Positions 6,891 through 62,013 of a stretch of 64,000 nucleotides of DNA are shown here, one piece after another. The notes beneath the pieces were generated by a model. It was not told the origin of the DNA. It saw nothing but the letters and a program-made list of their open reading frames with translations, and did no database searches. The position numbers were made by a program, and so were the translations under genes. Position 1 is the stretch's first letter. The number at the start of each line of letters is the position of its first letter. The stretch comes from a virus. The stretch is from IMG/VR virus record IMGVR_UViG_3300012165_000002, positions 1 to 64,000 of that record; one strand, written 5' to 3'.

Positions 6891-6936
6891 AAATCTTCTC
6901 CTTTTTTTTTAAAATTCATAGCGAACTATGTAAAAA

Positions 6937-7008: not shown

Positions 7009-7014
7009 ATATTT

Positions 7015-7097: not shown

Positions 7098-7212
7098 TAT
7101 GCCAGTAAGCATGGAAACTTACCATAACTGTTATTTGGAGGCTCGCAAATTGAATTCTCCACAAGCCATGCGCATCTCAGCGTTATATGTAGGGGTATAG
7201 ACCCCATCATAT

Positions 7213-7497: not shown

Positions 7498-7547
7498 TTT
7501 TTCTCCTTTTAATCGGCTTGCTGATTTTTCCAGTCAAGACTTATGAT

Positions 7548-23729: not shown

Positions 23730-24177
23730 CTCCCCTCAACACATCGCTATGACCGACAATCATCATATCAATCAGCGCTTTCTGATACTGGAATAACTCA
23801 ACACTCAAAATGTCCTCAACATATTCCGATGGACTCTTTTTCACTGTATCATTTTCCACCTTAAAATTCCCCCTAATGGTTATTCCGTTGTCAAACTGCA
23901 CATATCCCTCGCCTGTTCCATGTCCGCAACAAGCATTCATTACATTTCCAAGATTTGCTATACAATAATCTTGCCCATATTCATTTGGAGACATCCCACA
24001 CTTTTTGCAAATATGTGGTGTGCATCTACTCTCAATTGACGATTGTCTCTCAATCGTATAAACTCTAATATACTTCTCCAATAAATCTGAAATATTATCT
24101 TTGCCAACAATATTTTCAAACGCATCTCCCAAATCCTTATCAATTTCAATCGAGATTACTTTATTCACTTTTGCCAT
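23707..24177 (-). CDS. Hypothetical protein (156 aa)
   Basis: Start moved to ATG 24177 behind GGGAGGGC. C-terminal LIDMMIVGHSDVLRG is shared with the upstream ATP-grasp-like protein. Confidence 0.55.
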   Translation of the reverse strand: MAKVNKVISIEIDKDLGDAFENIVGKDNISDLLEKYIRVYTIERQSSIESRCTPHICKKCGMSPNEYGQDYCIANLGNVMNACCGHGTGEGYVQFDNGITIRGNFKVENDTVKKSPSEYVEDILSVELFQYQKALIDMMIVGHSDVLRGVEHNSGI

Positions 24178-39235: not shown

Positions 39236-39454
39236 ATGAAATGCATAGGTAGAAATTGTGTTTACAACAAATGCAATAGCGGAAATTTTTGCGGGTTGCC
39301 GTGGGCGTTCCCCACTCAAGAAGGAGACAATTGCGTGATTGACAAAGAAATAGAACTTTCTTTGCTGGAATTGAATAGTGTAAAAGAACGTTATGAAAGA
39401 ATGTTGTCGGAAAAAGAAAATATAATCAACAATCAAAATATTATAAGGAGGTAA
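39236..39454 (+). CDS. Paralogue family B member 1 (72 aa), Cys-rich N-terminus
   Basis: MKCIGRNCVYNKCNSGNFCGLP..EGDNCVID..KERYERML. Paralogue at 42494..42697. Confidence 0.6.
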   Translation: MKCIGRNCVYNKCNSGNFCGLPWAFPTQEGDNCVIDKEIELSLLELNSVKERYERMLSEKENIINNQNIIRR

Positions 39455-42493: not shown

Positions 42494-42697
42494 ATGAAAT
42501 GCGTAGGTAAAGATTGTAATTACATGAGAGGTAATCATTGTGGATTGCCAATTACGTTCTTCACAAGAGAAGGTGATGATTGTGTCATTGATGAAGGATT
42601 GGAATTTGCTTTAGTAATGTTAAATGATGCAAAAGAACGTTATGAAAGAATGTTATTGGAAAAAGAGAAATTATTAAAAATTGAGAGGGGAATATAA
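42494..42697 (+). CDS. Paralogue family B member 2 (67 aa)
   Basis: MKCVGKDCNYMRGNHCGLP..EGDDCVID..KERYERML. Confidence 0.6.
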   Translation: MKCVGKDCNYMRGNHCGLPITFFTREGDDCVIDEGLEFALVMLNDAKERYERMLLEKEKLLKIERGI

Positions 42698-42698: not shown

Positions 42699-43280
42699 AT
42701 GAGAGTTTGTGATGTGTGCGGCACAAGAGTATTTTTAAATTCACATACAAATTTTTCACACAATCTTGGTGTGACTTTTTGGAGAATGAGAAACAAAACC
42801 AACAAGGAAAAGGCAGAGGAATTTATATATTGCATCTTTGATGATTACTCTAAAAAATATCGAAAGGAAAGTATTTTTGAAGTTATGGAATGCACTAGCC
42901 ATTATGTAAATATGATTCCTGAGTTGTGGGATGCTATTGAAGATTTAGTATCATCAGAATACAGCGATTATCAAAAATGCAAATTGAAATATCCAGCAAA
43001 ATATGATTATTCAAAATTCCAATACGAAATAAAAGGTGTGCGTGGGGTATATGCTACAAAGAATTTGGATATAAATAATACAATTATAACGGAGATCTTT
43101 GATGAAAGTGGAAAACGTATAGGTTTGCTTTATCCGAATGAGCGTGGAGAAGAATATACTAAAGAGGAAATTGATATTTGGTATCGGGGATATAAGCAAG
43201 GAAAATTGAATGGTAAAAACGAAATAAGAAATGCTATGTATAACGCTTTGGGAATAAGCGAGTTGATACATAATAATTGA
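42699..43280 (+). CDS. Hypothetical protein (193 aa)
   Basis: ATG 42699 behind GAGAGGGGAATATAAA; N-terminal CDVCGT. Confidence 0.6.
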   Translation: MRVCDVCGTRVFLNSHTNFSHNLGVTFWRMRNKTNKEKAEEFIYCIFDDYSKKYRKESIFEVMECTSHYVNMIPELWDAIEDLVSSEYSDYQKCKLKYPAKYDYSKFQYEIKGVRGVYATKNLDINNTIITEIFDESGKRIGLLYPNERGEEYTKEEIDIWYRGYKQGKLNGKNEIRNAMYNALGISELIHNN

Positions 43281-43288: not shown

Positions 43289-44803
43289 ATGAAAGTGTTT
43301 AGAATCGGAGACAAAATAATGATAATTGAAGCGGGAGATGGAGCGAGAGGGTGTAATGGGCGCATTGGAATTGTTACTAACAATCCACATGTGTGTGGTA
43401 TACATGCAAACAATCGAGGATTCAATGTAGAATTAGAATCCGGTGTTTATGATCCGGATGAAAAAGAAGTGTGGCGAGTAAATCATGATGGAAAATATAC
43501 TTTGATGGAGGGAAATGATATCATGTCAAATGAAGATGAATTTGTGTGTTTAGATTGTGGAGCAATTTACGATAAAGTTGATGGTCACTCCTATGAAGAT
43601 GGATATCTTTGTGACGATTGCTATGAAGATTATTTCATATGTGAGGATTGTGGAGAAACTTATAAGAAAAGTGACGGTTATTCTTATGGTAATGGATATA
43701 TTTGTGAAAGCTGCTATGATGATGATTATTTTACATGTGAGCATTGTGGCGGTATTCATTATCATGATGATATGGCTACTGTAAATCCCAATAGCTGTTA
43801 TATAGAACATGTGTGTATGGCTTGTGCAGAGTCATATTACTATTTCTGTACTGAGTGTGATGAATGGTATTCTTATTCATTTATGTGGGTGACTGGAGAT
43901 GATTGTATTTGTGTCAACTGTTCAGATCTTTACACAAGGTGTGATGATTGTGATGCTGTAATATTGTGTGAAGATGCTTGTGGAGGTGACTATAGTACTT
44001 ACTGCGAAAGTTGTTTTAATGATAGACAATACCGTTCCCTACACGATTATGGTTATAAGCCAGATCCGAATTTCTTAGGAGAAATGGATGACAATTTATA
44101 TATGGGAATTGAATTGGAAGTTGATAAAGGTGATGGAATAATGGATTGTTGTGATGCAATACAAGAAATTACTGATGATGTATATATGAAAGAGGATGGA
44201 AGTATCAGTAACGGATTTGAAATCGTATCTCATCCAGCAACAATTGAATACCACATGACTGAACTTCCTTGGGAATCCATCATGAAAAAGTGCATAGAGT
44301 ATGGATTTCGAAGCCACGACACAACGACATGCGGAATTCATGTTCATGTAAGTAGAAAATATTTTGGAACAGCGCTTGAGACGCAGGATTTAAATATAGC
44401 CAAAGCTATTTTATTGATAAACAGGTTTTGGGATACTCACATTACAACTTTTAGCAGAAGAAATTATAGTAGTTTGATTCATTGGGCAAAGAAATCTGAA
44501 TTGATATTGGAGCCAGATGATACAACGGAAAAATTGATTTACAAAATGAAAGATGAAAATTGTCGTGGAGACAGATATATGGCAGTTAATTTGCAAAACC
44601 GCAACACAATTGAATTCAGGATATTCCGAGGAACGTTAAAAATAGATACGTTCTTTGCAATATTACAATTTGTAAAAACGATTTGCGAATTTGCAAAGGG
44701 AGTAAGTTTGCAAGATATTGATGGGACAACGTGGAATGACATCTTTGGAAATTCGGAATATGAAGAATTAAACGCTTATAACAAGTCGAAGGATCTTAAT
44801 TAA
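43289..44803 (+). CDS. Amidoligase-family protein 1 (glutamine-synthetase-like 'putative amidoligase' domain) with SH3-like domain and five zinc-ribbon modules
   Basis: C-terminal motifs MGIELEVD, EDGSISNGFEIVSHPAT, TCGIHVHVS, RYMAVNLQNRNTIEFRIFRGTL. Start is ATG 43289 or GTG 43295, after AAGGAG at 43281-43286. Confidence 0.75.
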   Translation: MKVFRIGDKIMIIEAGDGARGCNGRIGIVTNNPHVCGIHANNRGFNVELESGVYDPDEKEVWRVNHDGKYTLMEGNDIMSNEDEFVCLDCGAIYDKVDGHSYEDGYLCDDCYEDYFICEDCGETYKKSDGYSYGNGYICESCYDDDYFTCEHCGGIHYHDDMATVNPNSCYIEHVCMACAESYYYFCTECDEWYSYSFMWVTGDDCICVNCSDLYTRCDDCDAVILCEDACGGDYSTYCESCFNDRQYRSLHDYGYKPDPNFLGEMDDNLYMGIELEVDKGDGIMDCCDAIQEITDDVYMKEDGSISNGFEIVSHPATIEYHMTELPWESIMKKCIEYGFRSHDTTTCGIHVHVSRKYFGTALETQDLNIAKAILLINRFWDTHITTFSRRNYSSLIHWAKKSELILEPDDTTEKLIYKMKDENCRGDRYMAVNLQNRNTIEFRIFRGTLKIDTFFAILQFVKTICEFAKGVSLQDIDGTTWNDIFGNSEYEELNAYNKSKDLN

Positions 44804-44824
44804 AAAAAAAGGAGAATGATTATT

Positions 44825-45742
44825 ATGTGTATAATTGCAGCGAAGAATAAAGGTGTAAGTCTTCCAGAGATTGGAATCATAGAGCAAATGTGGTATAACA
44901 ACAGCGACGGAGCGGGATTGATGTGGCGTGAAGGAAATAAAGTCTGCATATCAAAAGGATATATGACTTTGAAATCATTCAAAAGAGCAATTTCAGAATT
45001 GGAAAGTCGATTGGATTTGACAGAAACGCCAATGGTAATGCATTTTAGAATTGGAACGCATGGAGGAAATATCCCTTCAAATACTCATCCATTTCCCATC
45101 ATGGAGAGTGTTTCTGCATTACAAAAGTTGGATTTCAAAACAAATATTGGTGTGGCGCACAACGGAATAATCCCCATTGATCCAAGATCGAAAAATATTT
45201 CTGATACTATGGAATATATCGCTGCTCAACTATATCCAATCAAGTGTATTAAGCCCACATTCTACAAAGATAAGAATTGCCAAAAGCTAATATACAATGC
45301 GATTCAAAGTAAAATGGCATTTCTAAATTATGATGGGAAAATATATACAATTGGCGACTTCATTACAGAAGAAGATGGAATGATTTATAGCAATACTTCC
45401 TACAAGCCAAAAACGTATTATCAAAGATGGGATTATTCCAATTGGGAATATTCAGACTACTTGTCAGGTTATAATTGGCCAAAAAAGGCCGATGATAACG
45501 AGCCACATTACGAATACCTTATGTGGTTAGATGACCGAGATGGTTGGGTTGTAGATGAAGATGGTGAAATGTATGATGGCGATTGGATATATCTATTCGA
45601 TAAAGAATTTAATGTATACAAGTATGATTATAACAATTGCGACGTAATAAAATTGTCAAAATATCATCTAGTTTCGGTTAATAGGAATTTGGAATTTGAT
45701 GAAGAAAAAGCGGAAGTTATTTGTGTTAATGAAGTTATATAA
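44825..45742 (+). CDS. Class II (Ntn-type) glutamine-amidotransferase-like protein
   Basis: Start at ATG 44825 gives MCIIAAK, with Cys2 as the nucleophile after Met removal. HFRIGTHGG..NTHPF and GVAHNGII motifs. AAGGAGAA RBS 8 nt upstream. Confidence 0.75.
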   Translation: MCIIAAKNKGVSLPEIGIIEQMWYNNSDGAGLMWREGNKVCISKGYMTLKSFKRAISELESRLDLTETPMVMHFRIGTHGGNIPSNTHPFPIMESVSALQKLDFKTNIGVAHNGIIPIDPRSKNISDTMEYIAAQLYPIKCIKPTFYKDKNCQKLIYNAIQSKMAFLNYDGKIYTIGDFITEEDGMIYSNTSYKPKTYYQRWDYSNWEYSDYLSGYNWPKKADDNEPHYEYLMWLDDRDGWVVDEDGEMYDGDWIYLFDKEFNVYKYDYNNCDVIKLSKYHLVSVNRNLEFDEEKAEVICVNEVI

Positions 45743-45762
45743 AACAAAAGGAGGAAATTGAA

Positions 45763-47031
45763 ATGCCATTTGATGATATGTTTGTAGAACAACGAAGCTT
45801 AGACAGTATATCTATAGATATAGATCCCCGCACATTTTATAATCAACATTACTTCTCCGTCGGCGATAGAATGGATGCGGGTAGAGCAGTAAGAGCGGTT
45901 TGTACCGATATTCCCGTATCTGACAGTTTAGCTCCAGGAACTAAAGTAAGAATTCATGATTACGAAACTTTAAGCCAATGCAGTGGCATTGGAGATGGCA
46001 CATTCTTCGACTATGCTGGAATGGTTGTGACAATTAGCCACCATCAAGACTGGGATGATGGATGGTATAGAATATGCGAAGATGATGGTGAGTGGTCTTG
46101 GAGCCGGTCAATGTTTACAGTAAGCGAGTTAGGTGATTTCGAAATTCCAGAAACAAGATTAGCACGTTGTCAAAGATGTAGTCATACATTCGTAAAGAAA
46201 TACGAGAGCACCGAAAACCTGTGCGAAAACTGTAGAAAAAGGAATTATATTTTACCATATCATAGGTGGTATCCGGAATTGGAATTCTATGGCGTTGCTC
46301 AAAACAAAAATCAAAAGCAACTATTCCTAGGAGTGGAGCTTGAAGTTGGCGTTGGAGGTGAATGGGATAGTTCTGTTGAAAAGATTATGCCCTTACTAAA
46401 TCAAGGCATAGATGAAGATTCTATATTTGCCTACTGTTCCCATGATGGAAGTATTGATGATGGTTTTGAAATTATAACTCAGCCAGCAACAATAAAATAT
46501 CACAAAAATCAAAGTGAAATGTATGGAAAGCTTTTCAAAAGGCTAATTGAAATGGGATATCGCTCACATAATGCAAGGACGTGTGGTATTCATGTTCATT
46601 TTAACAGAGATTATTATGAAGAGAATGACGATTTGTATTGCGCTCGATTAGTATTTCTGATTGAAAAGTTTTGGGATGAGATTGTCATATTTTCAAGAAG
46701 AGATAAGTACAGAATGGATAGATACACTAAGAAGATTGATTGTGAGTGTAATGACTTTGTGGCGAAATACAACAAGACAGATAGCCATGAAGCTCACTAT
46801 TATGCAATCAATTTAGCAAACAAGAACACGATTGAATTCCGGATGTTCAGAGGTACACTAAACTTAGACACATTCATAGCGATTTTGGAATTTGTAAACA
46901 ACTGTGTAAAGATTGCCAAAAACAATTCGACAGAAGATATTCAAAAGATGGAATTTATGGATATTCTAACTACAAATTGCAAATCGTATTATCGGCGCAG
47001 ATTGGTAAGCTTAAAGCTTGATGAAGTATAA
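45763..47031 (+). CDS. Amidoligase-family protein 2 with SH3-like N-terminal domain and one zinc ribbon
   Basis: LGVELEVG, HDGSIDDGFEIITQPAT, TCGIHVHFN, HYYAINLANKNTIEFRMFRGTL. Paralogous to 43289..44803 over the C-terminal 230 aa or so. Confidence 0.75.
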   Translation: MPFDDMFVEQRSLDSISIDIDPRTFYNQHYFSVGDRMDAGRAVRAVCTDIPVSDSLAPGTKVRIHDYETLSQCSGIGDGTFFDYAGMVVTISHHQDWDDGWYRICEDDGEWSWSRSMFTVSELGDFEIPETRLARCQRCSHTFVKKYESTENLCENCRKRNYILPYHRWYPELEFYGVAQNKNQKQLFLGVELEVGVGGEWDSSVEKIMPLLNQGIDEDSIFAYCSHDGSIDDGFEIITQPATIKYHKNQSEMYGKLFKRLIEMGYRSHNARTCGIHVHFNRDYYEENDDLYCARLVFLIEKFWDEIVIFSRRDKYRMDRYTKKIDCECNDFVAKYNKTDSHEAHYYAINLANKNTIEFRMFRGTLNLDTFIAILEFVNNCVKIAKNNSTEDIQKMEFMDILTTNCKSYYRRRLVSLKLDEV

Positions 47032-49965: not shown

Positions 49966-50334
49966 ATGAATTTAAAAGAACTGTTATCTAATGGATGTTT
50001 GGTGGAATATAGAAGTGGCCAAAGGGCGATTTTTTTAAAAGATGCTAATGTTATGGGTGGCGTTAAAAGTGCTTTTTTTGGAATTAAAAGTGGTCGGTAT
50101 ACAACACTTGATGTTTATAGTTGTGACTTAATTCAGTTTTGTGATTTATTGGACGTTATGAAAATCTATAACCCCGAATACACCGGTGATGCTATTCGCA
50201 GAATGAGCGAGTATGAAGTTCCTTGGACGTGGGAACGAGCTGAGAAGACGGAACGGGAAATTGAAATGGAAAAGTTACAGGAAAAGATAAATGAACTTCA
50301 AGAGCAATATAACAAACTGAAAGGATGTGAATAG
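49966..50334 (+). CDS. Paralogue family A member 3 (122 aa)
   Basis: MNLKELLSNGCLVEY.., DVMKIYNPEYTGDAIR, PWTWERAEKTEREIEMEKLQEKINELQEQYNKLKGC. Confidence 0.65.
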   Translation: MNLKELLSNGCLVEYRSGQRAIFLKDANVMGGVKSAFFGIKSGRYTTLDVYSCDLIQFCDLLDVMKIYNPEYTGDAIRRMSEYEVPWTWERAEKTEREIEMEKLQEKINELQEQYNKLKGCE

Positions 50335-50335
50335 T

Positions 50336-50506
50336 ATGTTAGTTTTCAAGGAAGTTTTGCTGAGAGTGTTTATTGCATCATTTTTTATAATCAGTGGCAC
50401 TATAGTTAATAAAGCGAATGATTATTATTTATTACTTCCGCTTTACATGATTGGTTGTACAATGATGGATGTGTGGTATAATTATAGGCACAAACATAAT
50501 ATTTAA
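50336..50506 (+). CDS. Small membrane protein (56 aa)
   Basis: ATG 50336 behind AAAGGATGTGAATAGT; below the track cut-off. Confidence 0.4.
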   Translation: MLVFKEVLLRVFIASFFIISGTIVNKANDYYLLLPLYMIGCTMMDVWYNYRHKHNI

Positions 50507-50521
50507 ATGGGAGGAGTAATT

Positions 50522-50800
50522 ATGAAATTAAAGTGGAACGATATTACAAGTTATAGCAAAGGAGACAAAGAAAGAACGCCAAAAGTTTTAAGAACTTGTA
50601 TAAAAAACTTTGAAATAACGATTCATAGGCATATATACTACGAAAATACATGGCTTTTGACTACTGATGATTTTCAAATAGAAAAAGAAGATTTATATAC
50701 TGATAAATTTGAAGAAGCAGAAACAAGAGCTATTGATTGTATTTTAGATAAATTAAGATTGTACATTGAAGATTATGAATATTTAAGATTATTAATATAA
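50522..50800 (+). CDS. Hypothetical protein (92 aa)
   Basis: ATG 50522 behind TGGGAGGAGTAATT. Confidence 0.6.
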   Translation: MKLKWNDITSYSKGDKERTPKVLRTCIKNFEITIHRHIYYENTWLLTTDDFQIEKEDLYTDKFEEAETRAIDCILDKLRLYIEDYEYLRLLI

Positions 50801-50813
50801 AGGAGGATAAAAA

Positions 50814-51101
50814 ATGATAAATCATAAAAAGGAAGTTGCTGAATTGTTGGAAGATGGTTTGTGCGATTGGTCGTATGAAGATATAAGCGTTGAAATGTAT
50901 TCGATTCCTAAACAGCAAATAAAAATCATTAAGAATATTATTGAACAACTTAAAAATGCTCCGGAAGATTATGATAAAGATTTTGGAGATGATAAGTTGT
51001 GTACATGTGGACATCAGTATTACAGGCACTTTGATACTTATGAAGATATGTATCCTTGTGGTTGTAAATATTGTGATTGTGAGAGATTTGAAGAAGCATA
51101 A
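50814..51101 (+). CDS. Hypothetical protein (95 aa)
   Basis: AAAGGAGGATAAAAA RBS; C-terminal CTCGH..CGCKYCDC. Confidence 0.6.
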   Translation: MINHKKEVAELLEDGLCDWSYEDISVEMYSIPKQQIKIIKNIIEQLKNAPEDYDKDFGDDKLCTCGHQYYRHFDTYEDMYPCGCKYCDCERFEEA

Positions 51102-51165
51102 GAAAGGATAGTAGATATGTATGCCAACATAGATGTTGTTTTAAAACATTATAAGGAGGATTAAA

Positions 51166-51486
51166 ATGAATAGATGGAAACTTACCGAAGAAGTAAGAAA
51201 TAAATACACGCCAATAGTGACAAAATTTATTGAAGAGCTGGAATCAATTCCAGAAACTTCTACTGAATTATTGGAAAAAGATTTTTCGGATACGGAATTA
51301 AACCCCTCAACGTTATTGGAATTACTAGAATATCTTGGATACGAAAACCAACGCCAAGAAGATAATGGATGGGAGCTTGATTTTTGGATTTATGTATCAA
51401 AACCAAATTTCAAACCAATTTGTATACAAGGTTGTGGAATGACTTTTGAATTAAGATTGTCAGGAGCAGAGGAGGATGAATTATGA
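51166..51486 (+). CDS. Acidic hypothetical protein (106 aa)
   Basis: TAAGGAGGATTAAA RBS; translationally coupled to the SprT-like gene. Confidence 0.6.
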   Translation: MNRWKLTEEVRNKYTPIVTKFIEELESIPETSTELLEKDFSDTELNPSTLLELLEYLGYENQRQEDNGWELDFWIYVSKPNFKPICIQGCGMTFELRLSGAEEDEL

Positions 51487-52091
51487 ATTATATACCAAGC
51501 GTAATAACAGAAATCGAGAGATGGCATTCACTTTTCAATGAAAAGTATTTTAATAATGAATTACTGCCAGTAATTATCACAATTCAAAAAACTCGCCCAA
51601 ACAATTTGGGATATATTACATGTGGAAAGGTTTGGAGAAGTGTTGATGGTGAAGATGCTTATTACGAAATCAATTTGAGCGCAAGTATCCTCCATAATAA
51701 TGTCACTGATATTGCAGGAGTTCTTTTACATGAAATGGTGCATGAGGATAATTTGATGAAAGAAATAAAAGATTGTAACGGACAAGTACACAATAAAAAG
51801 TTCAAAGTGAGTGCAGAACGAGTTGGATTGGAAGTTGAGCGCAGTAAAAAATATGGATTTGGCCATACGAAAGTTGTGCAAGGAACAGAACTTGAGGAGT
51901 TTATCACAAATGAAATTCAACCTAACTCTGAGACATTTCAATATGCTCGTATGATAGAACCGGCAAGACCACGTGCAGAAAAGAGAATCTTCAAGTATGT
52001 CTGCCCAAATTGCGAAACTAAAGCGATGGCAAAAAGAGATGTTGAATTGGTTTGTGGAGCTTGTGATAGCCGTATGGAAATGGAGGAATAG
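51483..52091 (+). CDS. SprT-like zinc metalloprotease domain protein with C-terminal zinc ribbon
   Basis: HEMVH (HExxH) inside an SprT-like context (YEINLSASILHNNVTDIAGVLLHEMVHE). C-terminal CPNC..CGAC. Confidence 0.7.
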   Translation: MNYIPSVITEIERWHSLFNEKYFNNELLPVIITIQKTRPNNLGYITCGKVWRSVDGEDAYYEINLSASILHNNVTDIAGVLLHEMVHEDNLMKEIKDCNGQVHNKKFKVSAERVGLEVERSKKYGFGHTKVVQGTELEEFITNEIQPNSETFQYARMIEPARPRAEKRIFKYVCPNCETKAMAKRDVELVCGACDSRMEMEE

Positions 52092-52160
52092 GATGGGAAA
52101 TTACATTGAAGCAAATGTGAGATTGTTGTTATCTGAATTATCACCGAAAGGGGTGAGTGG

Positions 52161-52367
52161 ATGACATTATTTTGGATTATAATATTGTTTTGGATTTGGT
52201 GTAAATCTTATAAAACGCCATATCAGAAATACCAAGAGCAGCATCCTGAATTATTTCCACCACCAGAGCCGTTTCATATTGTAGAATATGAATCGTGTGA
52301 TGAACGATTGGCGGCGGCTATCCGCAGATTTAATAATGTTGGAAAACCTAAAGATGAATGTGAGTGA
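52161..52367 (+). CDS. Small membrane-anchored protein (68 aa)
   Basis: AAAGGGGTGAGTGG RBS; N-terminal helix LFWIIILFWIW. Confidence 0.5.
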   Translation: MTLFWIIILFWIWCKSYKTPYQKYQEQHPELFPPPEPFHIVEYESCDERLAAAIRRFNNVGKPKDECE

Positions 52368-52373
52368 AATTGA

Positions 52374-52401
52374 TTTGGTACCGGCACAAATGTCGGTACC
52401 A
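52374..52401 (+). terminator. Hairpin upstream of the MazF-like gene (terminator or regulatory)
   Basis: TTGGTACCG / CGGTACCAA 9-bp stem, 10-nt loop, no U-run. Confidence 0.45.
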
Positions 52402-52433
52402 AACTATATTATAATAGGAGGTTACATAACAAA

Positions 52434-52775
52434 ATGAGAAGTATAAAAAGAGGAGAAGTGTATACAATAGATTTTGGAAACGAAGTTGTAGGTTCTGAAC
52501 AGGGTGGCAAGCGATTGGGAGTGATCCTGCAAAATAATAAAGGGAATTTACATTCACCAACAGTTATTGTGGCTACTATCACAAGCAAATGTAAAAAAGT
52601 AAAACAGCCAACACATGTAATAGTACATGATCCATTAAGAGAGGTGTCTTGTATTTTATTGGAGCAATTAAAAACAATTTCTGTAGACAGATTAGGTATG
52701 AAAATTGGAGAGTTAAGCGAAAGAGATATGAAGAGAGTTGATAGGGCATTAAGTATTTCATTGGGATTAAATTAA
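52434..52775 (+). CDS. MazF/PemK/Kid-family endoribonuclease toxin
   Basis: 113 aa; RGEVYTIDFG..VGSEQGGKRLGVILQNN..PTVIVATITSK..ILLEQLKTISVDRLG..GELSERDMKRVDRALSISLGL follows the family pattern end to end. Confidence 0.85.
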   Translation: MRSIKRGEVYTIDFGNEVVGSEQGGKRLGVILQNNKGNLHSPTVIVATITSKCKKVKQPTHVIVHDPLREVSCILLEQLKTISVDRLGMKIGELSERDMKRVDRALSISLGLN

Positions 52776-52792
52776 AATAAGGAGATGTTGCT

Positions 52793-53374
52793 ATGTATTT
52801 TATAAAATGTCAAGACCATTATATCGGAAAAGATAATAACAATCGGCCAACCAAAGTGGCCAATATAAAATTGGCAATAAAATTTAACAGTATAACCAAA
52901 GCCAATAATTATAAAATGACTCTTCCCAAAATATACACTGATCCAATAATTGAAGAGAGTTGTGAGACAGTACGTGTGGAAGACCGAATTGAAAATATGG
53001 ATATGAGTATAATCGAAGGGATTTCAGATGCAATCAATGAATTTAATCTTAGTTTACAAAAACTTAAACGGGCAAAAGAAGAAGTGGAGTTGTCGATGTC
53101 TTATTATGACACCAAGAAATCTGAATTTGAACATTTGTTTGAGTTTAGTAAGCTTCCGGCTAATGTGCGCTCAATAATGGATAAGGCGTATGATGAATGT
53201 TTGAGAGAGCGGAGAGAGAACAAAAGGAAATATGCTAAATTGTGCTCAATCAACGCCGCGTTAAAAAGATCTGGAATAAATACAAGAATTGATAATAAAG
53301 TAATGGGAGGAGATAAATTTATTCCAACTATATTGAAAAACGAATTTGAAGTTTGCAAAAGGTGGTTAATTTAA
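52793..53374 (+). CDS. Hypothetical protein (193 aa)
   Basis: TAAGGAGATGTTGCT RBS; no motif recognised. Confidence 0.6.
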   Translation: MYFIKCQDHYIGKDNNNRPTKVANIKLAIKFNSITKANNYKMTLPKIYTDPIIEESCETVRVEDRIENMDMSIIEGISDAINEFNLSLQKLKRAKEEVELSMSYYDTKKSEFEHLFEFSKLPANVRSIMDKAYDECLRERRENKRKYAKLCSINAALKRSGINTRIDNKVMGGDKFIPTILKNEFEVCKRWLI

Positions 53375-53384
53375 TTCAAATATT

Positions 53385-53426
53385 TTAGTTGACATTATGT
53401 AAATAATAAGATATAATGTCAACTAA
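53385..53426 (+). promoter_or_regulatory. Consensus SigA promoter embedded in a perfect 14-bp inverted repeat
   Basis: TTGACA (53389-53394), 17-nt spacer, TATAAT (53412-53417). Arms TTAGTTGACATTAT (53385-53398) / ATAATGTCAACTAA (53413-53426). Confidence 0.75.
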
Positions 53427-53447
53427 ACTACATAAAGGAGGATATAT

Positions 53448-54344
53448 ATGGATAATTTAGCAAGAGTATTTAGCATAGAGGAATATAAAAACAAGATGCA
53501 GTTGGAAAGACAGGTAGCAGAGCGAAATGATGGCGAGTTATCAACCGAAGAAATGTTCAGAATAATGATGAAGAGGATGGATAAATTAGAAGAACAAGCT
53601 GAGAGTAGAAAGCCAAAGACGAATAAGAAAAATAAAGCAGAACATACAGGAGTAGTAGAGCAGAAAAAAGAATACAGCAAAAACATAATAAAGAATATTG
53701 ATCAAATAGATCTTATTAGAGATACATTTTTAAAAAATGCTAGAGGGCGATATAGAGTGTCTAATTTGAAAAATAGATTATATGTAAGTTGTCAATTATA
53801 TACAGCTCTTAGATGTTCTGATGTTTTGACGTTAAGGTTCTGTGATTTTTTAGACGAATTAGATTTGGATAATGACATTATCAAATTCAAAGATAAACTC
53901 GTTATTTCTGAAATTAAAACAAGAGAACATAATCCAAATAGACATGTTTTTATAAACAAGGCAATTAAAGATGATATATTAATGTACTTGAATGTCAATA
54001 AAAATGTCAAATTAGATTCATATATTTTCAGCAGTAAGTCTGTGAATTCAAAAGACGAAGATAGTAAACCTATGAGCATTAATGCTGTCAATTCCATGCT
54101 TGACAAGGTTGGTAAAAGAGCTGGATTGGACTTCAAAATTACGTCGCATTGTTTGAGGCGAACGTCCTGTTATCATTTGTATATGCAAAACGGGCAAAGC
54201 AATCGTACACTACACTTAATCCAGAGTATGTTGAACCATTCCAGTGAGAGACAGACACTTGTATATTTGGGATTTGATGAAGAAGAGCAGAAAGAGGCAT
54301 ATTTAAATTTGAACTTGCAAAAGGGGTGTAAAGATGATATATAA
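53448..54344 (+). CDS. Tyrosine recombinase (XerC/D / phage-integrase family)
   Basis: TALRCSDVLTLRF (catalytic Arg box), HCLRRT (HxxR), LNHSSERQTLVYLG (His/Tyr box). Confidence 0.8.
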   Translation: MDNLARVFSIEEYKNKMQLERQVAERNDGELSTEEMFRIMMKRMDKLEEQAESRKPKTNKKNKAEHTGVVEQKKEYSKNIIKNIDQIDLIRDTFLKNARGRYRVSNLKNRLYVSCQLYTALRCSDVLTLRFCDFLDELDLDNDIIKFKDKLVISEIKTREHNPNRHVFINKAIKDDILMYLNVNKNVKLDSYIFSSKSVNSKDEDSKPMSINAVNSMLDKVGKRAGLDFKITSHCLRRTSCYHLYMQNGQSNRTLHLIQSMLNHSSERQTLVYLGFDEEEQKEAYLNLNLQKGCKDDI

Positions 54345-54462
54345 AGTATTCTTTACTGATGGCTCAAGTCTTGAGATTCAAGCAGCAAATACTTCAGAGG
54401 CGAGGTTAAAAGCCAGTAACATTAGAACACAGCCAATTGCAAACGTAATATTCATAAGATAA
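54334..54462 (+). CDS. Hypothetical small protein (42 aa)
   Basis: ATG 54334 behind AAAGGGGTGTAAAG; overlaps the recombinase stop. Confidence 0.4.
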   Translation: MIYKVFFTDGSSLEIQAANTSEARLKASNIRTQPIANVIFIR

Positions 54463-54485
54463 AAAACCACTACAAAGGAGAAAAT

Positions 54486-55091
54486 ATGAGAAAAATTATT
54501 AAAACGCTAATAATATCGCTAGTTATGATAGCAATAATATTCATTAATGCAAAAGAAGTAGTCGCCAACAATGACAATTATGTGGAAGTTATAGATGAAG
54601 TTATAAACTTCTTTGAAGAATTAGTAGTTGAAACTGAAGAAGTTGATGAAAGTCTGATTTCAATAAACGTACTATATGATAGTTCCACAAAAACTTACAT
54701 GGATTATAGACTGATAACAAATAAATCATCAGCCCAATATGATTATATTTATAATTCAGGACTAATTGAGTTTTGTGATGATGGACATTTGAGAGAAGAT
54801 GAACATATTGGAGTTGCTTTGGGATCGTATTTTGGCGATATCGGTGATAAATTTATTTTCAAATTGGATTCCGGTATTGAATTGAAGCTTATAAAGTTGG
54901 ATGAAAAGGATGATGATCACACAGTTGATGGTTTTATACACAATGAAGACGAATCGGTGATAGAGTTTATTATCGATGAGGATTTGATGGAGGATAAGCG
55001 AGCCAGAAATGGATATATTTACAACGGAAATTTTAATAATGCGCAGCAATACAAGGGAAAAATAATAGAAATATGGAAGGTGGTAAATTAA
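54486..55091 (+). CDS. Secreted protein (201 aa)
   Basis: Signal-peptide-like MRKIIKTLIISLVMIAIIFINAKEVVA; AAAGGAGAAAAT RBS. Antisense ORF 54762..55415 judged spurious. Confidence 0.6.
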   Translation: MRKIIKTLIISLVMIAIIFINAKEVVANNDNYVEVIDEVINFFEELVVETEEVDESLISINVLYDSSTKTYMDYRLITNKSSAQYDYIYNSGLIEFCDDGHLREDEHIGVALGSYFGDIGDKFIFKLDSGIELKLIKLDEKDDDHTVDGFIHNEDESVIEFIIDEDLMEDKRARNGYIYNGNFNNAQQYKGKIIEIWKVVN

Positions 55092-57917: not shown

Positions 57918-59888
57918 ATGTTATTGCATAAGGGGTTTATTGACATTCAGAGATTTCAAACAAAACATGCAGATTGTTTTGAAAAAGGAGATATAATTTC
58001 AGTTCAAGAAAAGTTGGATGGAAGTTGTAGCAGCATCCAGCACGACAACGAAGAAAATAAATTAATGTGCTTCTCAAGAAGAAAAACATTAAGTCCAACA
58101 GAAACATTAATGGGATTTTATGAATATGTTCAGAAATTAGACATGGATATATTTAAAAAGTATTCAACATATAGGCTATTCGGCGAGTGGAACTTGTCTC
58201 ATCTTGTTAAATATGCTCAAGAGGAAATTAAAAAGTTCCACTGCTTTGATATTTATGACACAATGAATAAAGTTTGGTTGCCACAAGATATAGTCAAAGC
58301 GATTTGTAAAGAGGGAAATATTCAAATGGTTCCGATATTTTATGAAGGAGAGTTTATTTCATGGGATCATATTCAAGAATTTATTGGAAAAACTCAATTC
58401 GGATTGAATAAGGGCGAAGGTTGTTTTCATGGTAAGACACAGATATTAATGAGTGATGAAACATCTAAGCCAATATCACAAGTAAAAGTGGGCGATATGG
58501 TTAAATCATATAATGAAAAAACAGGATTAATAGAAGATAAAAAAGTATTAAATGTATTTAATAATGGAGAAAAACCTATCACAGAATGGGGGAGATATGG
58601 GGTATCGGTATATCGACATAAACATTGTGATGTGCCAGAATCAAATATGCTTATTGTAACACACAACCATAAAATTTGGAATGGCAATGGGTACACTCCA
58701 ATATCACAAAGTAATACATTTTATCAATATGATTATGTAATTACAAAAGAAATTAAACAAGCTATTTTGGGTTTACTTTTATCTGATGGTAGTATTGACA
58801 ATAGATCAAATTTGGTTATTATTACACAAAAAAAAGAAAATCGTGGAGATGATTTATATAGATTGTTTTCGCCAATATCTAATAAACCTTATTACCATAT
58901 TAGCGGAAAAGGTACTGAGATGATAACATTTACTATAAATAAAAGACACACAAGAGATTGGATCAACAAATATATAAACTCAAATGGAAGAAAAAATTGC
59001 AAAGCTATTATTGAGGATTTAGACGAAATTGGAATGGCATTTTTTTACATGGGTGACGGCACTTCATATAAAAAAGGCAGAGCAGAAATATCAACGCACT
59101 CTTTTTCTTTAGAAGAAATTGATGCAATGAAAAATAAAATTAATGACCTATATAATGAATATCCGACAGAAAAAATAGATAAAAGAGTTAATTTACAAAA
59201 ATATTCTGGTATTTCACTACTATTTAATGCTCAACTTCGAGAAAGATTTGAGTCTATAAGTGGTAAATATTTTTTACCATCTTTTAGATATAAAATAAGA
59301 AATGAACATGAATGGATTTCGCTATCAATAGAAAAGGGATTAGTGAAAAAACCAATATTATCACACCACAATGACATTACAGAAAACAATACTAATTATA
59401 AAAAGTGGCGCAATATTGAAGCTTTTGATATTGAAGTAGAAGATAATCATAATTATTTCGCAGAAAAAGTGCTTGTTCATAATTGTGTAATCAAGAATCA
59501 GACCAAACTTAATAATCCTGACGAAAGAAAACCGTTTGTTGTAAAGTTAGTATCAACTGAGTATCAAGAAACTGCAAAAAACAGACACATTAGAGAGCCT
59601 TTGAGTGCAGATGAGATTGCTAAAAGAGAATACTTGAGCGATCTGACAGCAAGTATTGTTACTGAAAATAGAGTTGAAAAAAATCTTTATAAAATGATTA
59701 CTGAAAATGTTTTGCCTGAAGATTGGGATGAAACAAGTATGAGTTTGATTGCAAAAGAGCTTCCAAGAATTATTTATAATGATTGTGTCAAAGAAGAAAA
59801 TGATACTGTAGAAAAAATAGAAAACTTTGGCAAACTTTGTGCTTCTCACACAATGCAGATTGTAAGAAAAATGTTGCAAAATAGATAA
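57918..59888 (+). CDS. Rnl2-family ATP-dependent RNA ligase containing an intein
   Basis: Nucleotidyltransferase motifs in order: I QEKLDGSC, III LFGEW, IIIa FHCFDIYD, IV GEG-[intein]-CVIK, V FVVKLVS. Followed by an Rnl2-like helical C-terminal domain. Confidence 0.75.
   Translation: MLLHKGFIDIQRFQTKHADCFEKGDIISVQEKLDGSCSSIQHDNEENKLMCFSRRKTLSPTETLMGFYEYVQKLDMDIFKKYSTYRLFGEWNLSHLVKYAQEEIKKFHCFDIYDTMNKVWLPQDIVKAICKEGNIQMVPIFYEGEFISWDHIQEFIGKTQFGLNKGEGCFHGKTQILMSDETSKPISQVKVGDMVKSYNEKTGLIEDKKVLNVFNNGEKPITEWGRYGVSVYRHKHCDVPESNMLIVTHNHKIWNGNGYTPISQSNTFYQYDYVITKEIKQAILGLLLSDGSIDNRSNLVIITQKKENRGDDLYRLFSPISNKPYYHISGKGTEMITFTINKRHTRDWINKYINSNGRKNCKAIIEDLDEIGMAFFYMGDGTSYKKGRAEISTHSFSLEEIDAMKNKINDLYNEYPTEKIDKRVNLQKYSGISLLFNAQLRERFESISGKYFLPSFRYKIRNEHEWISLSIEKGLVKKPILSHHNDITENNTNYKKWRNIEAFDIEVEDNHNYFAEKVLVHNCVIKNQTKLNNPDERKPFVVKLVSTEYQETAKNRHIREPLSADEIAKREYLSDLTASIVTENRVEKNLYKMITENVLPEDWDETSMSLIAKELPRIIYNDCVKEENDTVEKIENFGKLCASHTMQIVRKMLQNR
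58422..59483 (+). mobile_element. Intein (354 aa) with LAGLIDADG endonuclease domain, inserted in ligase motif IV
   Basis: Starts CFHGKTQILM (Cys codon 58422-58424) and ends KVLVHN (Asn codon 59481-59483), followed by +1 Cys. LGLLLSDGSI and FFYMGDGTSY motifs. Confidence 0.85.
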
Positions 59889-60705: not shown

Positions 60706-62013
60706 ATGTATAATTATAACTGGAGTCCAGTTTATAATTTAGTTATGCAAATCAAGTATGAATATATTGAAAAATTTGGAAATATAAATTATGAGCAAAC
60801 CGAAAACCAAACTTGCTTGGAGATTTGGATTGAGAAACTAAATAACAAAAAATATTTAGATATTTTTAAATACATTCAAGTGAATCAAAAAGATACAAAA
60901 GTATTAATCAGATATGGGAATTATGCCGACGTGTTTGGCGGCGAAGAAGATATTACATCTGATAAATTTTGGGCTATGCACGACGGATTTTATACAGAAT
61001 GCAGAAGTATAACGATTGATTTGCAATTAGAAATTATTTTACTATCTGGATTCAAAAAATTCAAGAACCTAAATGAAGGAGCCGAGAATCAGTTAAATGT
61101 TATTCTTGAAGAAATTGAAACTGCAAAAAATATTGAAATAACCAACAAATTAGATGGAAGTCTTCAATTGGCACGTTATATTTGGATGTATGGCAAAATA
61201 TTTATGTCTGGCTCACAAGCAATTGATGTTGATAAATCATGGAGATTGCAAGACGGATACAATATGCTATTATCAGATAACAATTACAAAACTATGCTGA
61301 TAGAGCATCCAAGCTTAACTTTTATATTCGAATTTATTAGCATGAAAGATGCACATGTTGTTAATTATCAAAAAGAGCAAGAGGGTTTATATTTGATTGG
61401 AATGAGGAATGTGTATACTGGAGAACAATTTTCCTATAAAAAAGTAAAAGAGTTTGCCGATAAATATAATGTAAAAACAACTGAGATATTCAATAAAACG
61501 TTTGATGAAGTTTTGGAGGATGTTAAGACTAAAAAATCTAATGAAGCCGAGGGATTCGTGATTGATATTGAAAATCAAGATGGATATGTTCATAAGATAA
61601 AAGTCAAGGTCGATGATTACATTGCAATACACCGGATTCTATCTAAAATATCCTCTATAAACCTGATTATCAAATCAATTGCGCTGGATTCGTTTGATGA
61701 TTTAATTTCTAAAATTCCAGAATCTTACCGCGACAGAGTATATAAAGTTGCAAATGTCGTTCTTGACTATATAAGAAACATGGATAAGAACGTAAAAGAA
61801 TACTTTAGCGAGGCTCCAAAGGATACAAAGAAAAATTTTATGATATATGTTGATGCGAATGTACCTGTTGAATATCGGGGATATGTTAAAAATTTATATC
61901 TAGGAAAGAAAAATAATTATATTATGGGTGGAAGTGAAAAATGTCCATCGTTCAAGACTTTGAAAGAGATTGGAATTGAAAATTATTCTGAAATATTTGA
62001 ATTGGAGGAATGA
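60706..62013 (+). CDS. Rnl1-family (T4 RnlA-like) RNA ligase
   Basis: Motif I NKLDGSL. Motifs IV-V AEGFVIDIENQDGYVHKIKVKVDDY, compared with my memory of T4 Rnl1 EGYV..HFKIKSDWY. Size and extra N- and C-terminal regions fit Rnl1. Confidence 0.7.
   Translation: MYNYNWSPVYNLVMQIKYEYIEKFGNINYEQTENQTCLEIWIEKLNNKKYLDIFKYIQVNQKDTKVLIRYGNYADVFGGEEDITSDKFWAMHDGFYTECRSITIDLQLEIILLSGFKKFKNLNEGAENQLNVILEEIETAKNIEITNKLDGSLQLARYIWMYGKIFMSGSQAIDVDKSWRLQDGYNMLLSDNNYKTMLIEHPSLTFIFEFISMKDAHVVNYQKEQEGLYLIGMRNVYTGEQFSYKKVKEFADKYNVKTTEIFNKTFDEVLEDVKTKKSNEAEGFVIDIENQDGYVHKIKVKVDDYIAIHRILSKISSINLIIKSIALDSFDDLISKIPESYRDRVYKVANVVLDYIRNMDKNVKEYFSEAPKDTKKNFMIYVDANVPVEYRGYVKNLYLGKKNNYIMGGSEKCPSFKTLKEIGIENYSEIFELEE

Follow-up and report, generated by a model that had tools for sequence, protein, structure and literature searches.

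A ligase-amidohydrolase-ligase operon in a phage of gut Clostridia and its possible role in gamma-glutamyl-amide chemistry

Pairs of an ATP-dependent ligase of the glutamine synthetase (GS) superfamily and a GATase-like hydrolase acting on the gamma-glutamyl amide of the ligase are known as PuuA/PuuD, EgtA/EgtC and IpuC/IpuF. To our knowledge, every characterised ligase with a GS fold, such as GS, gamma-glutamylmethylamide synthetase, PuuA, GCS2 and PafA, uses ATP to convert the gamma-carboxylate of glutamate into an acyl-phosphate, which is joined to an amine. The pairing of an amidoligase with a GATase-like protein is presumably also written into the Pfam description. According to papers that cite the work, this pairing was predicted computationally by Iyer et al. 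(2009), and many cultured phages, LUZ24-like ones and Marvin (gp105/106) among them, have the cassette annotated; the locus described here, put forward in a first-pass annotation as its best candidate for an undescribed enzymatic system, thus belongs to a pairing already defined. Clostridium prophages possess an amidoligase-X-amidoligase layout with a gamma-glutamyl cyclotransferase (PMC11318856). Literature searches found an experimental substrate, product or phenotype for no member of the cassette, in agreement with the earlier statement that neither substrate nor product has been established.

A phage of approximately 150 kb from gut Clostridia carries the cassette as three genes, AL1-GAT-AL2, on the + strand. 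The window, the whole stretch of 64,000 nucleotides that was analysed, includes the following features:

43289..44803, + strand: AL1, amidoligase, 504 aa from ATG 43289 (likely true start GTG 43295)
43289..43540, + strand: AL1 N-terminal accessory domain, possibly SH3-like, residues 1-84
43547..44014, + strand: AL1 predicted zinc-ribbon array, LIM/RING-like, 10 CxxC motifs, residues 87-242
44036..44803, + strand: AL1 predicted catalytic GS-like carboxylate-amine ligase domain, residues about 250-504
44804..44824, + strand: AL1-GAT spacer, 21 nt, Shine-Dalgarno AGGAG at 44810-44814
44825..45742, + strand: GAT, class-II (Ntn) glutamine-amidotransferase-like amidohydrolase, 305 aa, predicted mature N-terminus Cys2
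45413..45739, + strand: GAT linker and C-terminal domain, Tyr/Asp/Trp-rich disordered 197-224, conserved beta-rich 225-305
45743..45762, + strand: GAT-AL2 spacer, 20 nt, Shine-Dalgarno GGAGG at 45750-45754
45763..47031, + strand: AL2, second amidoligase, 422 aa, Shine-Dalgarno GGAGG 8 nt upstream
46168..46233, + strand: AL2 predicted single zinc ribbon, C136, C139, C154, C157, followed by a PYHRY linker
46255..47031, + strand: AL2 predicted catalytic GS-like ligase domain, residues about 165-422

The three genes form one tight, co-transcribed operon with spacers of 20-21 nt, each with a strong Shine-Dalgarno sequence, and no terminator was found inside the three-gene module. The operon is surrounded by small genes that follow one another on the + strand and presumably belong to the early or middle class. 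All three open reading frames called in the first-pass annotation are present on this strand, as are the ligase motifs quoted there, G(I/V)ELEV, DGS..GFEI..PAT, TCGIHVH and Y.A(V/I)NL.N.NTIEFR.FRGTL. Shine-Dalgarno spacing and a 90%-identical homologue make GTG 43295, rather than ATG 43289, the likely start of AL1.

Both outer proteins, previously recognised as Amidoligase_2, pass the Pfam gathering score of 22 bits (AL1, 36.1 bits; AL2, 31.8 bits) and match PHROG 16683 (E 5.5e-69 and E 5.9e-62, respectively); that they end in the same domain was borne out by 39% identity over 250 aa (E 1e-44). By sequence comparison, AL2, for which 625 homologues were found, is placed in a ligase clade separate from that of AL1. 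The motifs YKP.P.F, G.ELE.D, Y.K.DGS, G.EIVSHP, TCG.H.H, FSRR and RY.A.NL.N..T.E.R.F.GTL are invariant in the catalytic domain throughout the AL1 alignment, while G190, E192, E194, D228, S230, G234, E236, H277, H279, R282, R312, R313, N350, N353, T356, E358 and R360 are invariant among 33 AL2-type sequences, with the set of acidic, His and Arg motifs invariant in both clades. The AF2 model of AL1 (overall pLDDT 82) retrieved the folds of glutamine synthetase, GmaS and Dop/PafA in Foldseek, and its catalytic domain models as a glutamine-synthetase-like fold. These matches have a probability of 1.0 yet low TM-scores of 0.27-0.34, which we count against the gamma-glutamyl reading introduced below.

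The zinc-ribbon and SH3-like modules are variable accessories, with 0, 8 or 10 CxxC motifs in the zinc modules of ligases from different phages, and SH3-like and analogous modules located at the N- or C-terminus depending on the phage. We read the ten CxxC motifs of AL1 as five zinc ribbons; the final six CxxC pairs are invariant or almost so among homologues, the array is modelled at pLDDT 75-95 and matched by LIM domains in Foldseek, and Prok-RING_2 lies slightly under the Pfam cut-off (E 4e-4). The single ribbon of AL2 has its four cysteines invariant in the 33 AL2-type sequences. Of the SH3-like plus zinc-ribbon N-terminal module previously assigned to each ligase, the zinc part therefore stands, whereas the SH3-like part is only faintly suggested by sub-threshold SH3-clan matches, the only Pfam matches of the N-terminal segments (E 0.012, SH3_13 in AL1, and E 0.2). 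Residues 1-80 of AL1 are modelled at a pLDDT of about 42, and this accessory domain is common only to AL1 and its closest homologue. Comparison of AL1 with a 98.5%-identical relative (locus L086) showed zero differences in the catalytic domain and a hot spot of divergence in the zinc array, with the targeting modules as the only diverged part. As N-terminal modules and clades differ, it is plausible that AL1 and AL2 have different targets.

The middle frame begins MCIIAAK, and the Met-Cys start at ATG 44825 is the supported one, since GGAG is located 10 nt 5' of it but just 1 nt 5' of the alternative ATG 44816; 143 of the 149 family representatives have a Met-Cys start. Homologues preserve C2, H73-R75, N86-H88-P89-F90, H112-N113-G114 and D127-T128 without exception. 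As proposed in the first-pass annotation, GAT is, judged from model and alignment, a class-II Ntn glutaminase fold with Cys2 as the cysteine nucleophile; neither an unrelated C-terminal fold in the ligases nor a lack of conservation of Cys2 or the acidic ligase motifs was found. The AF2 model (pLDDT 81) matched the GFAT/GlmS glutaminase domain, EgtC and PurF at a probability of 1.0 in Foldseek, and HFRIGTHG and AHNGII align to HTRWATHG and VHNGII of GlmS. That GFAT/GlmS (E 3e-6) outranks EgtC (E 2e-3) is also counted against the gamma-glutamyl reading. The nearest Pfam family, matched by 31 of 32 members, is GATase_4, which we take to be the stand-alone YafJ/EgtC type as opposed to the synthase-fused families, and among the 149 representatives no fusion to a synthase or ligase domain was found. 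Downstream of residues 197-224 (pLDDT <50), beta strands are modelled over 228-304, with W234, D259 and other positions conserved in the C-terminal domain, for which Foldseek gave no fold match.

We tentatively favour, at somewhat less than an even chance, that the ligases build gamma-glutamyl amide bonds and that GAT cleaves them. The bonds made by AL1 and AL2 would be gamma-Glu-NH-R on amine acceptors, which the variable zinc-ribbon/SH3-like modules at the N-termini would select or recruit, with glutamate as the activated carboxylate extrapolated from the GS superfamily. In GAT, Cys2 would act as the nucleophile and Asn-Gly as the oxyanion hole, with Arg75 and Asp127 holding the free alpha-carboxylate and alpha-amine of the glutamyl group, so that the same type of bond might be hydrolysed as by EgtC or PuuD, either to remove a transient gamma-glutamyl group or to release the amine for a next ligation. 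GATase_4 as nearest family and the missing synthase fusions point to such a hydrolase. The location among small genes and zinc modules of the protein-interaction type make core metabolism a less likely target than a macromolecule of the host or phage or a polyamine-like amine. A Pup-like tagging, in which a ligase would attach a small protein or peptide through its C-terminal Glu to lysines of the target and GAT would deamidate or de-conjugate, would fit the Dop and PafA matches of AL1 and its Prok-RING-like and LIM-like modules, typical protein-interaction adaptors. We regard it as highly improbable, as class-II Ntn enzymes bind a glutamyl group with alpha-amine and alpha-carboxylate both free, the invariant R75 and D127 fitting free Gln or gamma-Glu-X and not a polypeptide end, and as 80 GAT-seeded loci show no small tag gene conserved alongside the cassette.

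Gene neighbourhoods were compared in these 80 viral loci seeded with GAT and in 79 loci seeded with AL. A ligase is near GAT in 79 of the 80, directly upstream in 65, and no third family common to these loci was found. Ligase and GAT are thus a genuine pair with a very wide distribution among phages, and this two-gene unit is conserved across very different phages; in the three-gene module of the first-pass annotation this core holds, whereas the second ligase occurs in a minority of relatives and synteny of all three genes is not general. An AL2-type ligase immediately follows GAT in four independent loci, and several divergent large phages share the order AL-GAT-AL, in some cases with a gamma-glutamyl cyclotransferase in the cluster. 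Such GGACT/AIG2 proteins inside multi-ligase clusters, together with those of the Clostridium prophages (PMC11318856), argue for gamma-glutamyl chemistry. Against the gamma-glutamyl reading we count that GGACT and GAT, present together in at least one cluster (L088), are no simple alternatives, that most cassettes contain just one ligase, and that 61 of the 79 AL-seeded loci lack a GAT within 7 kb.

That GAT practically never lacks a ligase, whereas ligases often occur alone, is what would be expected of an accessory glutaminase subunit on a synthetase that can also use free ammonia. The close rival, possible though doubtful, is a two-subunit glutamine-dependent amidotransferase in which ammonia from GAT would attack a ligase-made acyl-phosphate to give a primary amide, following the logic of GatD/MurT on peptidoglycan iso-Glu or of asparagine synthetase B, with AL1 and AL2 amidating two different carboxylates. 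The full class-II glutaminase residue set, GFAT/GlmS as top fold matches and the tight, probably translationally coupled adjacency, suggestive of a complex, agree with it, and in GS itself ammonia is the nucleophile on the acyl-phosphate; the catalytic residues of GAT serve glutaminases and gamma-glutamyl hydrolases alike and do not separate the two readings. However, we know of no GS-fold enzyme that receives ammonia from a GATase partner; the cyclotransferases in the same ligase clusters would be left unexplained; GATase_4 and the absent fusions speak against it; and some clusters have one GAT for two to four ligases, an uncommon arrangement among channelled amidotransferases.

Amidoligase/amidotransferase genes of unknown function also accompany 5-HMUDK/aGPT-Pplase thymidine-hypermodification clusters in viral metagenomes (PMC8989533), and in one cluster (L089) the AL genes adjoin a dCMP deaminase. 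In a DNA or nucleotide hypermodification pathway, modified bases might receive amino-acid or polyamine moieties from the ligases, or have them elaborated, with nitrogen provided or a protecting group taken off by GAT. This is very unlikely, as dUMP hydroxymethylase, 5-HMUDK, aGPT-Pplase and TET/JBP were not found among the larger ORFs of the 64-kb window, no such family is co-conserved in the 80 loci, and the nucleotide-metabolism genes of the phage are >25 kb away on the opposite strand. A superinfection exclusion, credited to Iyer et al. (2009) by later papers and in citing papers proposed for the phiEco32-type amidoligase/GATase, might be achieved by an amino acid added or amidated on peptidoglycan, teichoic acid or a surface polymer precursor. 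MurT/GatD (PMC3267633) gives a chemical precedent, and the cassette is also located on >300 kb contigs in Clostridia MAGs, likely prophages. Strictly lytic phages such as the LUZ24-like ones possess it as well, though, and we consider envelope modification unlikely, with no pointer to membrane targeting upon sequence inspection, no envelope-biosynthesis genes co-conserved in the 80 loci, and zinc-ribbon, LIM-like and SH3-like modules that suggest cytoplasmic macromolecular partners.

Compared with known systems, PafA/Dop shares the GS-like fold and the combination of ligase and amidase on a glutamyl gamma-amide, yet the amidase here is of an unrelated Ntn fold rather than a ligase paralogue, and a Pup-like tag gene is missing. 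GatD/MurT, AsnB and GlmS/GFAT resemble the locus in the Cys1 Ntn glutaminase fold and residues combined with an ATP-using carboxylate activator; however, GatD is a class-I and GAT a class-II GATase, the synthetase fold is of Mur-ligase or PP-loop type as against GS-like here, and GAT and ligase are separate polypeptides in all 149 representatives. For PuuA/PuuD, EgtA/EgtC and IpuC/IpuF, where EgtC is a class-II Ntn enzyme and structural match of GAT whereas PuuD and IpuF are class-I GATase-like, no orthology is detectable at the sequence level: the ligases here are Amidoligase_2, carry putative zinc-ribbon and SH3-like targeting modules, and reside in a phage and not in catabolic or cofactor operons. 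Closest are the phage neighbourhoods of Amidoligase_2 (PF12224) and a GAT-II-like thiol peptidase, with the same two families, usually ligase then GATase-like, among replication/accessory rather than structural genes, as in UFV-P2 (ORF23/ORF25, LUZ24-like), Pseudomonas phage tf, OM43 phages MEP401/402 and Mycobacterium phage Marvin, where gp105 keeps GVELEV, KHDGS, H.H and RY.AVN and gp106 keeps MC..., HSRWATHG, CHPF, HNG and SDT. In LUZ24-like clusters COOH-NH2_lig and ATP-grasp genes adjoin the pair, whereas here an R2K ATP-grasp gene is 19 kb off on the other strand, and GAT is, with 305 aa and a beta-rich C-terminal domain, short compared with the 486 aa of the LUZ24-type GATase. To these neighbourhoods the present locus adds, downstream of GAT, a second ligase from another clade, and an AL1 with a putative five-ribbon zinc array and an extra N-terminal domain.

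The three genes are placed in tandem, and the positions proposed for them in the first-pass annotation, which had described a three-gene amidoligase/amidotransferase/amidoligase module, were borne out by the ORF calls:

43289-44803, + strand: first amidoligase (AL1)
44825-45742, + strand: class-II (Ntn) amidohydrolase-like protein (GAT)
45763-47031, + strand: second amidoligase (AL2)

They sit within a long series of small + strand genes; AL1, GAT and AL2 each possess a strong Shine-Dalgarno sequence, the spacers amount to 21 nt (AL1-GAT) and 20 nt (GAT-AL2), and no terminator-like site was found inside the module. A GGAG motif precedes the ATG of GAT at 44825 by 10 nt and an alternative ATG at 44816 by 1 nt, a spacing that favours the former, so that the GAT product begins with Met-Cys; for AL1, the GTG at 43295 is the favoured start as suggested by Shine-Dalgarno spacing and the start of a homologue. 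The content of the window is phage-like, including ribonucleotide reductase, an intein-bearing RNA ligase, Rnl1, a PNK/HD protein, a sigma-like factor and two tRNAs, with a GC content of ~32% and a switch of strand and GC skew near 29-30 kb. As a contig of 149,330 bp with 98.5% identity over the region keeps the same three genes, the phage genome is probably ~150 kb in size. Related loci in cellular assemblies derive almost all from Clostridia MAGs. No similarity match to the module DNA was obtained among 50,697 phage records, so that relatives there are found at the protein level only, and none of the three proteins matched the PADLOC defence-system models at E 0.1 or better.

Additional genes of the window have been recorded as observations in their own right:

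10556-13330, - strand: 924-aa protein with a match to PHROG 8308 (function unannotated; E 5e-90) and a weak one to a family that bears the label RNA-dependent RNA polymerase
14224-17481, - strand: ribonucleotide reductase large subunit, unusually long (1085 aa), profile matched in two stretches
39236-39454 and 42494-42697, both + strand: small Cys-rich proteins of 72 and 67 aa, clear paralogues with the consensus MKC(I/V)G..C.Y......CGLP..F.T.EGD.CVID...E..L..LN..KERYERML.EKE
51483-52091, + strand: SprT-like protein, downstream of the module
53448-54344, + strand: tyrosine recombinase (Phage_integrase), downstream of the module
57918-59888, + strand: RNA ligase gene (PF09414) split by an intein with LAGLIDADG homing endonuclease (Intein_splicing, Hint, LAGLIDADG_2)
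60706-62013, + strand: Rnl1-type RNA ligase
62735-63655, + strand: P-loop kinase/HD-phosphatase protein

The ribonucleotide reductase may contain inserted sequence, perhaps a second intein. With an unassigned 241-aa + strand gene between the Rnl1-type ligase and the kinase/HD protein, the group at 60706-63655 looks like a tRNA-repair module; genes for tRNA-Asn(GTT) and tRNA-Tyr(GTA) are located elsewhere in the window (6936-7097, - strand). In L086, a near-identical relative of the locus, a PemK-type toxin gene (19161-19502) lies between the tyrosine recombinase and SprT-like genes.

The two ligases have a C-terminal domain in common (39% identity over 250 aa, E 1e-44), and both exceed the gathering cut-off of 22 for Pfam Amidoligase_2 (PF12224) with 36.1 bits for AL1 and 31.8 bits for AL2, a call that is also precomputed for most ligase homologues; both also match PHROG 16683 (function unannotated) at about 1e-60 to 1e-69. 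Searches of the catalytic domains against PDB sequences, by single sequence and by profile, gave nothing useful; fold comparison alone was informative. In the AlphaFold model of AL1, confidence is good from residue 84 on; the catalytic domain (pLDDT about 90) matches glutamine synthetase (GS; 8tfc, 4lnn), gamma-glutamylmethylamide synthetase (GmaS; 9qur, 7cqn) and Dop/PafA with a probability of 0.9-1.0, at TM-scores of only 0.27-0.34. The motifs G.ELE.D, DGS, G.E, H.H, SRR and N..T.E.R.F.G.L are invariant throughout 37 AL1-type and 33 AL2-type sequences and retained in gp105, the amidoligase of mycobacteriophage Marvin; these acidic, His and Arg residues would be in keeping with a chemistry that involves metal, ATP and an acyl-phosphate. 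Pfam scores, fold match and invariant residues together uphold the previous assignment of both ligases to Amidoligase_2, with a GS-like fold seen in the AL1 model. AL1 and AL2 are no recent duplicates; AL1-type proteins carry a zinc-ribbon array followed by a YKP.P.F linker, and AL2-type proteins one invariant ribbon followed by PYHRY. The SH3-like modules also proposed for both ligases found no confirmation beyond sub-threshold SH3-clan hits and a low-confidence model. Two apparent leads were discarded, namely a weak match of the AL2 zinc ribbon to 9mqx, where the ribbon is a structural element of a tungsten oxidoreductase complex (PMC12318220) and of no relevance here, and a 2025-26 Klebsiella 'amidoligase-like' PTM enzyme, which is an ATP-grasp enzyme of a different family.

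For the middle protein, the Pfam evidence taken by itself is weak, but that from its family is strong. Against Pfam GATase_4 (PF13230), the YafJ/EgtC-type stand-alone class-II amidohydrolases, GAT scores 13.6 bits (E 0.03) and does not reach the gathering cut-off of 23, so that it is a divergent superfamily-level relative instead of a threshold-passing member; 31 of 32 GAT family members, however, match GATase_4 and no other amidotransferase family (best E 9.6e-7). The family is large, with about 2,000 full-length homologues in a word-indexed search and about 11,000 representative clusters at 50% identity in an exhaustive one. Met-Cys starts 143 of 149 family representatives, and in 33 sequences Cys2 is invariant, as are H73-R75, N86-H88-P89-F90, H112-N113-G114 and D127-T128. 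PDB sequence searches by single sequence and profile again gave nothing useful, with only fold comparison being informative: the GAT model (pLDDT 81) finds its best matches in the glutaminase domains of GFAT-1 and GlmS, followed by EgtC and PurF, each with probability 1.0 and with a TM-score of about 0.5 relative to the single-domain targets 1xff and 4zfk, and its viral structure matches are annotated as 'Gn_AT_II domain containing' or 'YafJ'. Upon profile alignment (hhalign) with a GlmS sequence, HFRIGTHG of GAT pairs with HTRWATHG and AHNGII with VHNGII. The glutamyl-binding and oxyanion residues of GlmS, R73, N98-G99 and D123, have their counterparts in R75, N113-G114 and, judging by the SDT/TDT motif beyond the aligned stretch, probably D127. 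The earlier class-II Ntn assignment with Cys2 is corroborated by the invariant cysteine and the Ntn glutaminase fold of the model. Past residue 196, a disordered Tyr/Asp/Trp-rich linker leads to a domain of some 80 aa, beta-rich and conserved, for which no recognisable relatives were found.

How tightly the genes are associated was assessed in 80 IMG/VR loci seeded with the GATase-like family. A ligase is present in 79 of them, directly upstream in 65, further upstream in 13 and downstream in one, with the remaining locus cut by the contig edge. All-against-all clustering of the neighbouring ORFs identified the ligase and the GATase-like protein as the only families in all loci, gaps between the two being filled by lineage-specific genes, and no conserved third gene for a substrate, tag or adaptor was found among them. 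In ligases, the number of CxxC motifs varies widely (none in 18 of 86, 8 in 36 and 10 in 17) and the zinc array is dispensable. With only two families conserved and the array dispensable, the core is a two-gene cassette; of the three-gene module initially proposed, it is the ligase-GATase-like pair that persists. The pair is also present in cultured, unrelated phages such as Marvin (gp105/gp106), OM43 phages and LUZ24-like phages. AL2-type ligases have a GATase-like protein starting with MCIAI directly upstream in four independent contexts (E 1e-57 to 1e-66), with further ligases nearby and, in two contexts, a GGACT/AIG2 gamma-glutamyl cyclotransferase. The two cyclotransferase genes belong to multi-ligase clusters of other large phages, where they adjoin AL2-type ligases:

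L088, 7424-7840: GGACT/AIG2-type cyclotransferase, with a GATase-like gene also in the cluster
L090, 1179-1598, - strand: GGACT/AIG2-type cyclotransferase

The order is AL-GAT-AL in L091 and AL-GAT-AL-AL in L089, while L092 and L116 show a looser AL-GAT-AL arrangement with an adjacent GAT-AL pair and a ligase further upstream. In a published Clostridium prophage analysis, ORFs 35 and 37 are given as amidoligases and ORF 39 as a gamma-glutamyl cyclotransferase (PMC11318856). On seeding with the ligase, on the other hand, a GATase-like gene is missing within 7 kb in 61 of 79 loci, most of the 61 belonging to one gut-phage lineage; in large gut phages with lone amidoligases, a 954-aa gene is located just downstream of the ligase. 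In the Clostridioides phage AR1086-1 (C. difficile), a lone AL2-like amidoligase, in the neighbourhood of which a GATase-like gene was not found, is followed by a 336-aa protein (6760-7770 of locus L001), which looks nucleotidyltransferase-like by its motif GGSFAYG...DLD.

The zinc array of AL1, which resembles LIM-type fingers by fold and Prok-RING_2 just below threshold, is also where the locus diverges most from L086. Compared with this relative, 74 of 490 positions differ in the array (15.1%), 8.7% in the N-terminal domain of AL1 and 6.4% in the upstream 193-aa gene (42699-43280), whereas the roughly 3,000 nt of the AL1 catalytic domain and the complete GAT and AL2 genes are identical in both, as is the stretch 50001-54803. 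Within the array every CxxC cysteine is kept, with 41 nonsynonymous versus 23 synonymous changes, and the break coincides with the boundary between zinc array and catalytic domain (43289-44030 being diverged). This pattern looks as if a targeting module were exchanged as a unit, or evolved faster, next to a catalytic core that stays fixed. Diversifying or positive selection is not demonstrated thereby; since the divergent block extends into the upstream gene and stops abruptly at the domain boundary, recombination is no less likely an explanation than selection. In Marvin, the GATase-like gp106 (L171, 4666-5565) has its own Cys-rich zinc-ribbon-like segment at the C-terminal end, so that zinc modules can sit on either cassette partner.

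Two GS-fold ligases and one Cys-Ntn amidohydrolase are thus tightly and widely coupled. To our knowledge, all characterised GS-superfamily ligases activate the gamma-carboxylate of glutamate by forming an acyl-phosphate and then link it to an amine. Enzymes of the class-II Ntn amidotransferase type bind a glutamyl group whose alpha-amine and alpha-carboxylate are free, the gamma-amide of which they cleave, and GGACT enzymes likewise act on gamma-glutamyl amines. The co-occurrence of the three families points to one common moiety, the gamma-glutamyl amide, and because of this convergence we tentatively favour, at somewhat below even chances, a reading in which the ligases would make gamma-Glu-NH-R bonds and the Ntn enzyme would cleave them. 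Pairing of a ligase with a hydrolase has precedents in PuuA/PuuD, EgtA/EgtC and IpuC/IpuF. A close rival, which we hold to be somewhat less likely, is a glutamine-dependent amidation complex with GAT feeding ammonia to a ligase-activated carboxylate; the GlmS-like structural matches of GAT, the strict adjacency of the pair and the finding that GAT is not found alone (ligase in 79 of 80 GAT-seeded loci) are in line with such a complex, but the gamma-glutamyl cyclotransferase link, the GATase_4 affinity of the GAT family and the outcome of a Rosetta-stone search, with no ligase-GAT fusion in 149 GAT representatives, make it the less favoured of the two. Extending the gamma-glutamyl amide reading, AL1-GAT-AL2 could constitute a three-step relay by which a macromolecule of host or phage acquires a new covalent modification, although we consider this improbable: AL1 would put an amine on glutamate, the Ntn enzyme would unload it inside a complex and AL2 would couple it to a carboxylate, activated by ATP, of a target picked by the fast-evolving zinc-ribbon and SH3 modules. 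Glutamate in the role of an amine carrier is known from hydrazine natural-product pathways, and, if true, such a relay would amount to host takeover or counter-defence by a new class of post-translational or nucleic-acid modification in thousands of phages. As to the target, cell-wall modification has been considered, but no envelope genes are co-conserved with the cassette in the 80 loci. Equally, DNA hypermodification is opposed by the absence of dUMP hydroxymethylase, 5-hmdU kinase (5-HMUDK) and aGPT-Pplase among the scanned ORFs of at least 130 aa in the window (64 kb of the roughly 149-kb genome) and of such genes among the families co-conserved with the cassette in the 80 loci.

Amidoligase_2 is said in its Pfam description to neighbour a GAT-like thiol peptidase or an AIG2/GGACT cyclotransferase, and at the present locus GAT is indeed adjacent to the ligases. 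The pairing of ligase and GATase-like gene is routinely annotated in phages, the neighbourhood of amidoligase and GAT-like peptidase/AIG2 having been defined, according to citing papers, in 2009 by Iyer, Abhiman, Burroughs and Aravind. In full-text literature searches neither an experimental substrate or phenotype nor a demonstration of ATP-dependent amide-bond formation was found for any member of the cassette family, and a 2021 study on thymidine hypermodification still lists amidoligase/amidotransferase-type genes as function-unknown (PMC8989533). The locus consequently belongs to a known, uncharacterised cassette type, modestly distinctive by two ligase clades around one Ntn enzyme, by its five-ribbon array and by divergence limited to the upstream gene and the N-terminal half of AL1. 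The cassette, with an annotation purely computational since 2009, counts as one of the more widespread enzyme pairs in phage genomes that still lack an explanation, occurring in phages of Clostridia, Actinobacteria and Proteobacteria, and would represent new takeover or counter-defence chemistry should it modify host proteins, polyamines, cell wall or nucleic acids. What this locus contributes are two ligase clades each adjoining the same Ntn enzyme, a cyclotransferase link and a diverged N-terminal zinc module, while for the broad and real question of function the cultured Marvin or LUZ24 are better test beds than an uncultured phage.

Pup-like tagging (PafA/Dop/Pup) was considered, but the Pup system uses a small tag protein with a C-terminal Gln/Glu, whereas no tag gene is co-conserved with the phage cassette in 80 loci. 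A further ligase is encoded in the window at 24161-24928 (- strand), a 255-aa protein of the R2K clade of ATP-grasp enzymes (R2K_2 E 3.4e-16, R2K_3 E 1.9e-12) and as such another predicted peptide- or protein-modifying ligase; with AL1 and AL2, this brings the predicted amide-bond ligases of the phage to three, representing two folds, and in LUZ24-like phages an ATP-grasp gene directly adjoins the amidoligase and the GATase.
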